Shown: positions 58,012-61,253, counted from the stretch's first letter. The stretch is DNA of 64,000 nucleotides from Nannocystis sp. (GCF_016714285.1 NZ_JADJNN010000008.1:324669-388668), one strand, 5' to 3'. The notes: a model not told the origin generated them from the sequence alone. Numbers and translations: made by a program.

Positions 58012-59253
58012 TCAGTTGTTGAAGCAGTCGGCGCGGCACTTGTATTCGAGGGCGCACAGGGCGAGGTCGCGGCAGTCGGCCTCGACCGCCTCGGGCGTGC
58101 AGTCGTCCTGGCCGATCAGGCCCTTCACGACGCAGCTGCGCCACCTGGGCACCGCGCAGGCCTTCAGATCGACGGCGCACTGCTTGCGCACGCACTTCCC
58201 ACAGACCGGGTTCTTCGGCGCCGGGATGCAGTACTTGAGCGGCGGCGGGAGCGGGGCCACGGTGGGGAGCGGGGTCGGTGGCGGCGTGCCGGTATCGGTG
58301 TCGGTATCGGTGTCGGAATCGGTGTCGGAATCGGAATCGGAATCGGTGTCGTTCGTCGGATCATCGGTGCTGCCGGAGGTCGTGAGATCGGCGGTGTCCT
58401 GGGTGCCGGTGCTGGCCGGCTCGACGGTGGGCTCCGCCAGCGGCGAATCGCCGGTGGGCGGCTTGCTGGCCCTGGGCCCGGCGGGGGCGCGGAGGCGGCC
58501 GTTCTCCTGCTTGCATTCGGTCAGCGCCGGGCTCTCGTCGCAGAGCTGGACGCTGGCGGCGGCGCCGGCGAGCGCGCCCGTGCCGGCGCAGGCGGTGGCG
58601 ACCACGGCGACCTCGGCCGTCTTGGTGCTGACATACGCGATAGCGACGAGGGGGAAGGAGAGCAGCCATTTCTTGCCGCCGGGGCGGATCCTGATGTCGT
58701 TCGCCAGCAGGCGCCAGCGCCCGCGCAGGAGGTCGCGGAAGGCCCCGAGGTCCTCCTCCTTGACGCCGAGCACGAGGTGCAGGCCGCCGAGCGGCATCGC
58801 GGCCATGCGCGTGAGCGCCTCGACGAAGCGGGTGACCTCGGCGGGGTCGCGCTTGTTGTCGAGGAGCTGCTCGAGGCGGTAGAGGGCGATCAGCAGCGGT
58901 CGATCGGAGCGACGCTCGGCGCGTTGCAGGGCCGCCTCGAGCGCCGCGAGCGGCTTTTGGTCCGGGGGGCCGGCCTCGAGCTCGAGCTGGCGGTTGATGT
59001 GATCGACGAGCTGCTGGACGGTCGGGCCCTGCTTCTTGTCCCAGCGATCGACGATGACGCTGCGGACGTCGACCTGCTCGCGCAGGCGCGGCAGCACCTC
59101 CTCGACCACGAAGGCGTCGAGCTTGGTGGCGGTGGGGGCGTAGATCGTCGAGCAGCGGTACGCCATCAGCTGGCCGACCAGGATCGTGGCCAGCGCGGCG
59201 GGGTCGCTGCGGCGCATCGCCCGGCGATCGACGCGGAGCTCGGCCTTGCTCAT
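58012..59253 (-). CDS. Single-pass membrane protein: cytoplasmic N-domain, TM, Thr-Asp dipeptide-repeat stalk, Cys-rich C-terminal ectodomain
   Basis: GAGGAGGTG precedes ATG 59253, which overlaps the stop of the upstream CHAT-SIR2 gene (ATGA). TM helix FPLVAIAYVSTKTAEVAVVATACAGTGALAGAAA. TDSDSDSDTDSDTDTDTDT repeat. 12 Cys in the last 70 aa. Confidence 0.6.
   Translation of the reverse strand: MSKAELRVDRRAMRRSDPAALATILVGQLMAYRCSTIYAPTATKLDAFVVEEVLPRLREQVDVRSVIVDRWDKKQGPTVQQLVDHINRQLELEAGPPDQKPLAALEAALQRAERRSDRPLLIALYRLEQLLDNKRDPAEVTRFVEALTRMAAMPLGGLHLVLGVKEEDLGAFRDLLRGRWRLLANDIRIRPGGKKWLLSFPLVAIAYVSTKTAEVAVVATACAGTGALAGAAASVQLCDESPALTECKQENGRLRAPAGPRASKPPTGDSPLAEPTVEPASTGTQDTADLTTSGSTDDPTNDTDSDSDSDTDSDTDTDTDTGTPPPTPLPTVAPLPPPLKYCIPAPKNPVCGKCVRKQCAVDLKACAVPRWRSCVVKGLIGQDDCTPEAVEADCRDLALCALEYKCRADCFNN
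58281..58350. repeat. Hexanucleotide microsatellite (aatcgg/tgtcgg units, ~11 copies) encoding a Thr/Ser-Asp dipeptide repeat
   Basis: tatcggtgtcggtatcggtgtcggaatcggtgtcggaatcggaatcggaatcggtgtcg. Confidence 0.8.
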
Positions 59254-61253
59254 GGCTTCACCTCCTCGATGATCTGCGTCAGGTCGGGCAGGGCCATCGC
59301 CACGGCGCGCACGGTGCCCTGGCCGAACAGGCCGCCGGCGCCGCGGTCCCAGATGTCCTTCTCGTTGTTCTCGGGGGCGACGACGGCGACGCTGACGCGG
59401 GAGGGCGGCCGCTGGTCGAGCAGCCAGCGCAGGAGCATGCGGTGGCGCCACTCGAGCACGGAGATGCCGACGCAGAGCATCGGGTGCGCGCGCAGCCAGC
59501 CGACGAACTGACACTCCCAGTCGGGCGGGAAGATGTCGCGGAGATCGATGAGGCCCTGGATATGGTCGTCCTCGGTGAGCTGCGGGGTGGTGAGCACCGG
59601 CTGCGTCTCGGGCGAGTAGCCGCCGTAGAGGCGGAAGATCATGAAGTCGCGGTCCAGGTCGACGTCGGGCGGAGGATCGTCGTTCTCCTCCCACTCGGGC
59701 TTGCCCGCGGCGCGCGTCAGGATCAGGCGCGCCTCGCCGCTGCCGGGCGCCGCCGGCTGAATGACGTGGATCGTGCGGCCCGGGTGGAGGTCGGCGATCG
59801 TCTGCTCGAGGAAGGGCAGCCACAACAGGGTGGTATGCGCGCCGGGCCGCAGGGCCCTGGCGATCGCGCGGATGAAGGGCGGCGCCTCGAGCTCGACGGT
59901 GGTGCCGATGGTCTTCTGGAACAGGCGGCTCAGCTTCCCCTTGCCGTGGCGGAGGGAGAAGCGCTGGGCGACGGCGCTGAGGCCGAGCCGCTCGGCGTCC
60001 TTCTCTCCGTCCTTGCCGAGCTCGGCGACGAGGTCCCGCAGCAGCTCCGCGTGCCCGGGGATGGCGGCGCCGCTGCCCCCGAGCACCAGCGAGAAGCGCT
60101 CACGCAGCAGGTTGCCGAGGGCGGGGTCGACCTCGCCAAGCGCCCCGCCGGTGAGGCCCGCGACCGGCGCGACCAGGCGGCGCTTCCTGAAGTCGAGGAT
60201 CCGCGAGTCCGGGCCGCGCAGGTAGAGCACCGGCGAGAACACCTCGGCGCCGCGCTCGATGAAGGTGCGGCGGGTCGCCTGCAGGCTGGCGGCGACGTCG
60301 CCCATGCCGTCCCTGGTGCCGGTGAGCGTGCGATAGAAGACCGTGGAGATGTCGCGGGCGACCTCGGCCTTGACGGGCCACAGGTGGGCGAGCACCGCGT
60401 CGGCGCCGTCGCGGGCGAGGATCTCGGCGGCGCTGGCGAAGGCGCCGGGCCGGGCCCCGCTGCAGGCCTCGAGCACGACCAGGCGCAGCTCGGCGCCGAG
60501 GTTGGTGCGCAGCTCCTGGGCGAGGGTCTCGGCGAGCAGGAAGCCCGACTCGCCAGCGCCATCCTCGACGAGGTAGAGGCAAGGGTTTTGCCGCTCGTCG
60601 GTGCCGCCGTGGCCGATCCAGTGGATGATGTGCGGCGCGTCGCTGCGGCGCAGGCGCTCGAACAGGCGCGGGCCCGCGGCCTGGTCGCCGACGATCGGGT
60701 CGAGCCATTGCAGCGAGCCCTCGGCGATCGACTCGTGCAACGCGGCCTTGAGGCTGGTCAGCTTGTCCTCCTCGCCGAGCGGCGAGATGGCGAGCAGACG
60801 GACGGCGCGGCGGATCTCGCGGTTCTCGTAGGGCTCGGTCGAGTTGACGCCGCGGGTGACGAGCAGCTCAGGCAGGCAGCCGATGAAGTCGCGGGCGGTC
60901 TCCGGGCGACACATGACCTCCCACGGGAAGCGCTGCAGCTCGGGGTCGCGGATCATCAGGCGCAGCAGGAGCTTGCGGTCCTGCGCGCGGGCGACCTCGC
61001 CGAGGCGCACGAGGAGGTCGCGGAGCTGGTCGCGGAAGAACGCGGCATGCAGCTCGCGGGCGCCGGTGATCACGTGCTCGGGGAGCGCCGAGCTGGCGGA
61101 GACGGCCCGCCGCACGCCGCTCGCCAGGCCCGTCAGGCGCCCGAGGTTGATCGGCGCGAGGTCGAAGGCGGCGATACGCTCGCCGCGAGAGCCGCGCGCC
61201 GACACGCGGATCACCTGATTGTCGCGCTCGACGTCGATCTCTATCCACGACAT
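59250..61253 (-). CDS. CHAT (caspase-like) + SIR2-like effector protein, paralog of 28609-30651
   Basis: HIIHWIGHGGTDERQNP and LRLVVLEACSGARPG (His/Cys dyad). SIR2-like: FSLVLGGSGAAIPG, HPMLCVGISVLEWRHRMLLRWL. Confidence 0.75.
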   Translation of the reverse strand: MSWIEIDVERDNQVIRVSARGSRGERIAAFDLAPINLGRLTGLASGVRRAVSASSALPEHVITGARELHAAFFRDQLRDLLVRLGEVARAQDRKLLLRLMIRDPELQRFPWEVMCRPETARDFIGCLPELLVTRGVNSTEPYENREIRRAVRLLAISPLGEEDKLTSLKAALHESIAEGSLQWLDPIVGDQAAGPRLFERLRRSDAPHIIHWIGHGGTDERQNPCLYLVEDGAGESGFLLAETLAQELRTNLGAELRLVVLEACSGARPGAFASAAEILARDGADAVLAHLWPVKAEVARDISTVFYRTLTGTRDGMGDVAASLQATRRTFIERGAEVFSPVLYLRGPDSRILDFRKRRLVAPVAGLTGGALGEVDPALGNLLRERFSLVLGGSGAAIPGHAELLRDLVAELGKDGEKDAERLGLSAVAQRFSLRHGKGKLSRLFQKTIGTTVELEAPPFIRAIARALRPGAHTTLLWLPFLEQTIADLHPGRTIHVIQPAAPGSGEARLILTRAAGKPEWEENDDPPPDVDLDRDFMIFRLYGGYSPETQPVLTTPQLTEDDHIQGLIDLRDIFPPDWECQFVGWLRAHPMLCVGISVLEWRHRMLLRWLLDQRPPSRVSVAVVAPENNEKDIWDRGAGGLFGQGTVRAVAMALPDLTQIIEEVKP

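Follow-up and report, generated by a model that had tools for sequence, protein, structure and literature searches.

A predicted CHAT protease paired with a putative membrane-anchored nSTAND1 remnant in Nannocystaceae

Architecture of the A-B gene pair

We analyzed a 64,000-nt stretch of DNA from Nannocystis sp. (GCF_016714285.1 NZ_JADJNN010000008.1:324669-388668), in the following called the window and always taken at its full length, in which a gene for a CHAT-domain protein (gene A) overlaps a gene for a putative bitopic membrane protein (gene B). Both belong to a run of six closely spaced minus-strand genes that spans 63078-52791; the run begins with a gene for an OmpA-type protein carrying TSP3-like repeats (OmpA/TSP3) and continues with A, B and three further genes named C, D and E (Table 1). 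The module discussed here, comprising OmpA/TSP3, A and B, thus lies on the minus strand. An earlier inspection of the bare DNA sequence by a model (the sequence-only reading) had pointed to overlapping stop and start codons of A and B and to a GAGGAGG ribosome-binding site ahead of a 413-residue B, and both can be read directly from the DNA, with a spacing of 7 nt between the latter and the start codon of B. It had left out the OmpA/TSP3 gene, which is strictly conserved upstream of A and ends 28 nt before the start of A in the window. A promoter and terminator scan revealed no minus-strand terminator between the OmpA/TSP3 gene and D; at the 72% GC of the window, such a scan is uninformative.

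The CHAT assignment of A was confirmed. Its open reading frame matched Pfam CHAT (PF12770) with an E-value of 1.4e-17, which passes the Pfam threshold, and the domain has a caspase-like fold. The motifs HWIGHGG and LEACSG, which had been proposed to hold the catalytic dyad, correspond to residues 211-217 and 261-266, respectively, and the catalytic codons are located at 60609-60611 (His215) and 60462-60464 (Cys264). Both residues are invariant in all 22 members of the A family that we aligned, a set that covers relatives coupled to B as well as relatives coupled to a nucleoside triphosphatase (NTPase). A is accordingly described here as a CHAT protein with an intact His-Cys dyad, for which proteolysis is predicted. 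No hydrophobic segment or signal peptide was present in the sequence or in the predicted model of A. Other searches with A returned little: the sole NCBIfam match was a short HetF-like stretch, the A-family profile matched only the CHAT part of 8tl0 in the PDB, and sequence searches of the PDB with A and with C were nearly empty.

The C-terminal half of A is less typical. It scored 13.9 bits against Pfam SIR2_2 (PF13289; E 0.06), below the gathering threshold of 24.5, and weak matches to the same model occurred in 14 of the 22 A-family members, the best of them (E 2.8e-4) likewise remaining below threshold. A SIR2 or Rossmann-like fold was recovered for A, and support for SIR2 is therefore at the level of the fold only. 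At the positions that are catalytic in ThsA and KomC, A carries TTLLW (within HTTLLWLP) instead of TTNYD and RLYGG (within RLYGGY) instead of K[LM]HG, meaning that the catalytic Asn is replaced by Leu and the catalytic His by Tyr; both motifs of A are invariant or nearly so across its family. In these substitutions and in missing the SIR2_2 threshold, A differs from the SIR2 NADases (NAD+-hydrolysing enzymes) ThsA, Avs5 and KomC. We interpret the domain as a SIR2 fold that is probably not a conventional NADase, while a non-canonical active site could still be present, because the mapping onto ThsA and KomC is indirect and runs through the two SIR2_2 paralogs of the window by weak alignments (E 0.17-0.9). 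One of those paralogs is a TIR-caspase(C14)-SIR2_2 protein, the other a CHAT-SIR2_2 protein, and A had been counted with the two as the third CHAT-SIR2 effector of the window. The CHAT part of that claim stands, the SIR2 part holds at fold level only, and the kinship of A to the other two effectors is distant (25% identity over 79 amino acids).

For B, we assembled a family of 35 clusters at 90% identity, whose members are 34-96% identical to the B of the window and nearly all 375-430 amino acids long. The N-terminal domain is the best conserved part (mean pairwise identity 63%), and dozens of residues of B are invariant. Against Pfam nSTAND1 (PF20703), B reached 15.4 bits (E 0.014; cut-off 27.1) and aligned only to positions 99-166 of the 379 in the profile; 16 of 20 family members gave similarly weak matches. 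What decided the relationship to nSTAND1 NTPases were direct comparisons. The domain matched an nSTAND1 NTPase of locus L017 in a tblastn search (2e-31, 40% identity), and when aligned with nSTAND1-WD40 NTPases of sister systems, it shows 33-36% identity to their N-termini. Searching 1.8 billion representative proteins with the B-family profile yielded 115 matches at E <= 1e-10, down to about 1e-36; besides a few B-family representatives and short fragments, these were mostly long nSTAND1 proteins (about 600-1600 amino acids), in which residues ~25-200 matched profile positions ~20-191. AlphaFold2 modeled the domain with a predicted local distance difference test score (pLDDT) above 90, and the top Foldseek matches were ORC/Cdc6, Vps4 and Apaf-1, all of the AAA+/STAND type.

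Across the positions of the Walker A, Walker B and REDYLGxFR motifs, B aligns with active NTPases, and both Walker motifs are degenerate (Table 1). No GK[ST] is conserved anywhere in the B family, nor is a Walker A Lys or Gly conserved in the 20 members aligned, and family members have Tyr, Cys, His or Phe in place of the Walker B Asp. The homology stops at about residue 190, where the relatives run on with FRLGPL into their helical domains, and no helical, winged-helix or WD40/repeat sensor part was found in B beyond this point. Judged from these alignments, the N-terminal domain of B is a dead nSTAND1 NTPase core, and with Walker A and Walker B both destroyed, B cannot serve as an ATP-driven switch. 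An initial impression that this domain might be a degenerate NTPase was thus borne out by the tblastn match, the 115 profile matches, the AAA+/STAND fold and the loss of the Walker motifs.

The remainder of B consists of a putative membrane anchor, a stalk and a Cys-rich domain. The Kyte-Doolittle maximum over 19 residues starts at residue 215 with a score of 1.71, and hydropathy at the same position ranges from 1.6 to 2.5 in 20 of 20 family members, despite a regional identity of 36%. The stalks of the family comprise 74-114 amino acids, are rich in Pro, Thr and Ala and carry a net charge of -5 to -21 in all members, at a mean pairwise identity of 24%. Relatives that are 97%, 90% and 85% identical to B vary in length exactly at a 12-nt repeat in this region, which agrees with the predicted length polymorphism of a Thr-Asp microsatellite. 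The same relatives hardly differ in the Cys-rich domain, which is modeled with a pLDDT of ~90 and shows a mean pairwise identity of 54%. The layout originally proposed for B (N-terminal domain, hydrophobic segment, Thr-Asp stalk, Cys-rich end) stands except for the 12 cysteines: the compact domain contains 11 here versus 12 in most relatives, since a CC pair reads CA in the window, and 11 are invariant. Two more cysteines of B adjoin the membrane segment.

No Pfam family matched the Cys-rich domain, and a search for homologs of this domain alone yielded none, its word-index filter passing no candidates. The pattern of its first half, C-x7-8-C-x2-C-x4-CC-x5-C-x5-7-C-x-C, recurs in small proteins of 157-285 amino acids that start with a lipobox signal peptide and contain a similar acidic linker rich in Thr, Asp and Ser. 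These lipoproteins (P0280-P0300, outside the window) have no Pfam match either. Export of the Cys-rich domain is predicted, and the lipoprotein relatives, which support it indirectly, are the best evidence available. The shared Cys pattern also suggests that the C-terminal half of B is a captured lipoprotein precursor, the signal peptide of which would have been turned into a membrane anchor.

Table 1. Genes and features of the module and its surroundings; positions refer to the window unless a locus is named
Feature	Position	Strand	Remarks
OmpA/TSP3 gene	61282-63078	-	likely start at an internal Met near 62889
Gene A	59250-61253	-	667 aa (amino acids); cytoplasmic CHAT protease with SIR2-fold domain (predicted)
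CHAT domain of A	60255-61061	-	residues 65-333
SIR2-fold C-terminal domain of A	about 59253-60131	-	residues ~375-667
Shine-Dalgarno-like GAGGAGG	59261-59267	-	within the 3' end of gene A, 5' of the B ATG
ATGA overlap, A stop / B start	59250-59253	-	B ATG 59253-59251, A TGA 59252-59250; read from the sequence
Gene B	58012-59253	-	413 aa; predicted bitopic membrane protein: dead nSTAND1 core, anchor, acidic stalk, Cys-rich domain
Inactivated, truncated nSTAND1 P-loop core of B	58684-59205	-	residues ~17-190; predicted cytoplasmic
Degenerate Walker A	59116-59142	-	YAPTATKLD vs active YGPSGAGKS (alignment)
Degenerate Walker B	58867-58896	-	LLIALYRLEQ vs active LLIYLDQIEQ / hhhYLDQIEQ (alignment)
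Predicted transmembrane (signal-anchor) segment of B	58543-58611	-	residues 215-237
Acidic Thr/Pro/Asp-rich disordered stalk of B	58237-58542	-	residues 238-339; pLDDT <50
12-nt tandem repeat	58286-58351		5.5 copies; codes (T/S)D repeats; Tandem Repeats Finder score 97
Cys-rich helical C-terminal domain of B	58015-58236	-	residues 340-413 (74 aa); predicted periplasmic
Gene C	56053-57999	-	648 aa; clan-CD-like; start 12 nt past B
Gene D	55172-56056	-	secreted DUF7790 / LIC_10091-like; GTG start overlaps C stop (GTGA)
Gene E	52791-55175	-	RCC1/DUF4215 lipoprotein
Third genes of NTPase-coupled sister systems	L018 13684-14157; L019 13885-14748; L020 13878-14903

Conserved gene linkage and replacement of the NTPase partner

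We compared 11 distinct A-B loci, namely the window and L001-L016 minus duplicates, all from metagenome-assembled genomes whose labels read Nannocystis, Nannocystaceae or 'Polyangia'. An intact A lies directly 5' of B in ten of them (the window and nine others), in which A is 57-76% identical to the A of the window, with the identity of B falling to ~38%. The junction of A and B found in the window, CCATGAGC, is also present in L001 and L012, and gene calls give overlaps of 4-8 nt in L001, L002, L004 and L006. In every locus with an intact A (10/10), an OmpA/TSP3 gene on the same strand ends 0-55 nt 5' of A; no OmpA gene precedes A in the four NTPase-coupled outgroup loci that we inspected. 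Both the linkage of A to B and that of OmpA to A are hence strict. The other neighbors are less constant: of the 11 loci, 6 have a C homolog, 7 a D homolog and 4 a homolog of the RCC1/DUF4215 lipoprotein at a distance of up to 8 kb from A-B, in variable order, and a D homolog directly follows B in L002 and L003. The public homologs that we found have no protein name or are annotated as hypothetical only, and those with an organism label come from metagenome-assembled genomes; uncultured Nannocystaceae are as yet the only known source of the B-coupled family.

Beyond this clade, the A family extends at 44-48% full-length identity to Sorangium, Nannocystis sp. SCPEA4 and other Myxococcota. We inspected four such outgroup loci; in each, the gene after A overlaps it by 4 nt and encodes a full-length nSTAND1-WD40 NTPase of 1232-1363 amino acids. 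In all members of the A clade of the window that we examined, A is followed by a B homolog, which supports the idea that a membrane protein fills the slot of the NTPase. A neighbor-joining tree placed the B-coupled A proteins as one clade nested among the NTPase-coupled ones. Because the nearest relatives of A are coupled to nSTAND1-WD40 NTPases and the B-coupled clade is nested within them, the simplest history is that B replaced the NTPase partner once, in an ancestor of the Nannocystaceae. In this event, the NTPase would have lost all but its core, the core would have been inactivated and joined to a Cys-rich module of exported type, and linkage of the pair to OmpA would have arisen. Taken alone, the architecture and its evolutionary derivation are in our judgment very probably correct.

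Two-gene conflict systems consisting of a CHAT or caspase effector and an nSTAND1 NTPase have been predicted before (Kaur et al. 2021, eLife, PMC8195603), and it is to these that the module is closest and from which it descends. Examples such as SOCE26_083050 and SOCE26_049910 of Sorangium cellulosum, together with the genes downstream of them, encode the same effector family (A 44-48% identical) in the same gene order with a 4-nt overlap, and the N-terminal domain of B is homologous to the P-loop core of their partner. In contrast to that partner, B lacks the Walker A and B motifs, the helical and winged-helix domains and the WD40 repeats and instead has an anchor, a stalk and a Cys-rich domain; OmpA is an addition as well.

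In the NTPase-coupled sister systems of Sorangium and Nannocystis, a third gene overlaps or abuts the stop codon of the NTPase gene (Table 1), and its product combines a signal peptide with a PEGA domain or with transmembrane segments. As these third genes are of envelope type, envelope-associated partners may predate the fusion that gave rise to B. We also considered the third genes as donors of the C-terminal half of B and rejected them, since they show no similarity to its Cys-rich domain.

A proposed model for protease control at the envelope and its alternatives

We propose, with moderate confidence in the reading as a whole, that OmpA/TSP3, A and B constitute an envelope-linked three-gene module in which B acts as a tether or sensor for the protease that works independently of nucleoside triphosphates; the sensing step deserves much less confidence than the architecture and its derivation. 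The membrane and Cys-rich parts of B, together with the constant OmpA neighbor, suggest that the protease is wired to the envelope and not to the cytoplasm. According to this working model, the dead core would have kept the ancestral ability to bind the CHAT effector and would thereby tether A to the cytoplasmic face of the inner membrane, and the stalk of 74-114 residues would carry the Cys-rich domain into the periplasm. There, the domain would contact an envelope component, for which the OmpA protein encoded alongside and peptidoglycan are the most plausible candidates. This ligand is probably a conserved one, because the Cys-rich domain is itself conserved and not diversifying (54% identity compared with 24% for the stalk). 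A change in the contact, caused by envelope damage or clustering, would be passed across the membrane, and the protease would be released or activated by proximity. The output would be proteolysis and not NAD+ hydrolysis, and no nucleotide switch would be involved. We infer the membrane topology, the binding of A to B, the contact with OmpA, the mode of activation and the biological role.

Several observations weigh against this model. The hydropathy of the B of the window (1.71) is borderline, AlphaFold2 gives no helix for the putative transmembrane segment (pLDDT 32-44), and B, which is devoid of winged-helix and helical domains, has no known device for oligomerisation. One locus, L010, retains B, but A has shrunk there to its final ~72 codons; B may therefore function independently of A, or this copy may be in decay. 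In addition, the flanking genes differ between loci and a genome can hold up to three copies of the module (2-3), so that it could be an immunity system or serve a lineage-specific function in the envelope. Regarding L010, the orphan B is located at 7766-9179, the remnant of A adjoins an opposite-strand Laminin_G_3/PASTA gene, and the same genome contains a further, intact A-B copy (L011).

A more far-reaching version of the model, which we regard as tentative and on the doubtful side, would make the module a bacterial counterpart of death receptors, in which a Cys-rich, extracytoplasmic receptor part of a single-pass protein passes its signal over the inner membrane, via a dead STAND adaptor, to a CHAT protease by induced proximity and independently of NTP hydrolysis, with OmpA as the guarded component or co-receptor. 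If true, a cytosolic NLR-like system would have been rewired into a transmembrane one by swapping its sensor half only.

We further considered that B could be a membrane-bound inhibitor, decoy or antitoxin, the core of which sequesters the protease and keeps it off until B is degraded or lost; B might in that case also titrate the effectors of paralogous nSTAND1 systems, and its periplasmic part would serve for anchoring or stability only. Inactive paralogs are often dominant-negative regulators, as exemplified by c-FLIP acting on caspase-8. This precedent favors inhibition, as do the absence from B of every NTPase part needed to oligomerise, the presence of canonical nSTAND1 systems nearby (two in the window and one on the L015 contig) and the 4-nt overlap, which would fit stoichiometric co-production of the two proteins. 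A pure inhibitor would, however, need neither a conserved domain of 74 amino acids with 11-12 invariant cysteines on a long stalk nor an invariant OmpA partner gene, and L010 has B without A. We therefore consider this explanation unlikely.

Similarly improbable to us is a lineage-specific role in the envelope or in development, outside immunity and cell death, in which OmpA and B would mark the site where the CHAT protease processes envelope-related substrates; together with D and E, the module would belong to the cell-surface biology of the Nannocystaceae. A CHAT protease of this kind exists in HetF, which functions in cyanobacterial cell division, and the only NCBIfam match of A is the HetF-like stretch. 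The invariance of OmpA, the occurrence of D near 7/11 and of RCC1/DUF4215 lipoproteins near 4/11 loci and the conserved, non-diversifying ectodomain would suit such a role. PADLOC likewise gave no system-level match for the module: A gave weak matches to SAVED_CHAT and BovA only, and none were obtained for B, C or D, leaving no similarity to defence systems beyond that of the CHAT domain. These points are countered by the descent of the module from a CHAT and nSTAND1-WD40 pair, which is a predicted conflict architecture (PMC8195603), by the 2-3 copies per genome with unrelated flanks, by neighbors that are predicted defence genes (in the window nSTAND1 systems and an Eco57I-type methylase, in L001 BREX and NACHT genes) and by the one decayed copy in L010, which is typical of accessory and not of core genes.

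That A and B are adjacent by coincidence, or that B is a functionless, decaying NTPase pseudogene, might be supposed from its truncation, its ruined catalytic motifs and the unstable length of its repeat-bearing linker, and is rejected as scarcely credible on the grounds of conservation: the 35 homolog clusters are nearly all full length with reading frames kept down to 34% identity, the N-terminal and Cys-rich domains have dozens of invariant residues and retain mean identities of 63% and 54%, the overlap of the A stop and B start codons recurs across loci, and AlphaFold2 is highly confident in both domains of B.

Among known systems other than the CHAT and nSTAND1 pairs, B has a parallel in iSTAND and iSTAND2, which are inactive STAND modules belonging to the MoxR-vWA ternary conflict systems (Kaur et al. 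2020, 2021; PMC7159879, PMC8195603). In both cases, the NTP-binding motifs of a STAND module have eroded, and the module persists beside peptidase effectors in a non-enzymatic role. A membrane-proximal placement, with OmpA or PEGA domains, is described for some iSTAND systems (PMC7159879), and iSTAND modules have been proposed to be nucleic-acid receptors (PMC7159879, PMC8195603). Unlike these, B derives from nSTAND1 and is reduced to the core only, and the parts that it has gained point to the periplasm; no MoxR or vWA genes were present in the gene calls of the loci or among the window open reading frames that we scanned. A further parallel is provided by EACC1-caspase, a membrane-associated two-gene system in which a short transmembrane EACC1 protein is encoded 5' of the caspase gene (PMC7159879), since here, too, a small single-pass membrane protein is encoded beside a protease of the caspase superfamily. 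In contrast to EACC1, B is encoded 3' of the protease gene, comprises 413 amino acids and contains a dead NTPase core and an ectodomain, and the gene 5' of A is OmpA; B had no EACC1 match in Pfam at E <= 1, assuming that Pfam contains an EACC1 model. Finally, in DdvA the CHAT domain is periplasmic, forms one polypeptide with its anchor and releases a sigma factor of the extracytoplasmic function (ECF) class, whereas A is a separate CHAT protein predicted to be cytoplasmic. DdvA, which is of the TPR-CHAT type, also carries a zinc-binding anti-sigma domain and a transmembrane helix on that polypeptide; no anti-sigma domain matched B.

STAND and NLR systems are understood as cytosolic nucleotide switches, and B appears to be an inert core placed at the membrane that is nevertheless coupled to the effector throughout the clade. 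The literature that we searched gave no account of this architecture. Should the proposed wiring of the protease to the envelope through B be true, the module would represent a natural case of an intracellular immune or cell-death module made transmembrane, the P-loop core would emerge as the minimum retained from a STAND NTPase, and the new exported Cys-rich family and its OmpA partner would become candidates for envelope sensing.

Neighboring genes and the wider window

The product of the OmpA/TSP3 gene, which belongs to the OmpA family of outer-membrane and peptidoglycan-binding proteins, matched Pfam OmpA at 9.2e-20 and contains the TSP3-like repeats after which we named it. Its best NCBIfam match was the TraB model NF033763 (127.9 bits, 2.7e-37; cut-off 700), of which only positions 319-498 were covered, by the C-terminal 190 residues of the protein. 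No TraA-like gene was identified beside it. Given the score below the cut-off (128 versus 700 bits), the C-terminal match only and the lack of an adjacent TraA-like gene, we rejected the protein as a TraB ortholog; its likeness to TraB, the partner of TraA in myxobacterial outer-membrane exchange, is one of architecture only. Divergently from the OmpA/TSP3 gene lies an ECF sigma factor gene (63094-63633, +) that encodes sigma-70 regions 2 and 4. It was discarded as a component of the module because it is not conserved in the other loci.

Downstream of B, the product of C carries the motifs SLSHG and CIACFAAG and a Pro-rich tail and matched Pfam Peptidase_C25 weakly (9.8e-5). A paralog with 42% identity is encoded at 37855-39942 (+) and has the corresponding motifs TLSHG and MLACYGAG and a C-terminal helix-turn-helix. 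The C family looks like a clan-CD protease family, as far as these motifs tell, and C itself is an accessory, non-invariant neighbor. The D protein belongs to Pfam DUF7790 (1.1e-47) and to the NCBIfam LIC_10091 family (1.6e-28), has an apparent signal peptide and matched the uncharacterised PDB entry 6ulo at 1e-9. We class D as an accessory neighbor as well; it may be a fourth, periplasmic component. The lipoproteins encoded by E and by the gene at 51634-52734 (-) share near-identical N-termini, Thr-rich linkers and DUF4215 Cys-rich repeats, and the larger one, E, adds an RCC1 beta-propeller. Similar RCC1/DUF4215 genes are found beside A-B in L001, L004 and L008. As for the flanks of individual loci, A-B lies beside a NACHT-pentapeptide gene and BREX genes (BrxE, BrxB) in L001 (16311-21236) and beside a phage-sheath/GPD contractile-injection cluster in L004 (13628-21176).

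All three SIR2-like domains of the window, at 24237-26318 (-; TTHDL/KLLGS), 28609-30651 (+; TTASD/HLFGH) and about 59250-60131 (-; TTLLW/RLYGG), carry neither the canonical Asn nor the canonical His where they align with the ThsA and KomC motifs, and two of the three pass the SIR2_2 threshold. Going by these motifs, they may be non-catalytic scaffolds and not NADases. SIR2-like domains on the caspase and CHAT effectors of these myxobacterial systems are thus possibly not conventional NADases, a point that matters when such proteins are annotated as NAD-depleting defence effectors.

The window also encodes two canonical nSTAND1 NTPases. The first (19735-24318, -) comes after the TIR-caspase-SIR2_2 gene, and the second (30648-34475, +), which has WD40 repeats, comes after the CHAT-SIR2_2 gene, the two overlapping as TTGA. 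A methylase of Eco57I type is encoded at 34632-36566, and this region has the appearance of an island of conflict systems.

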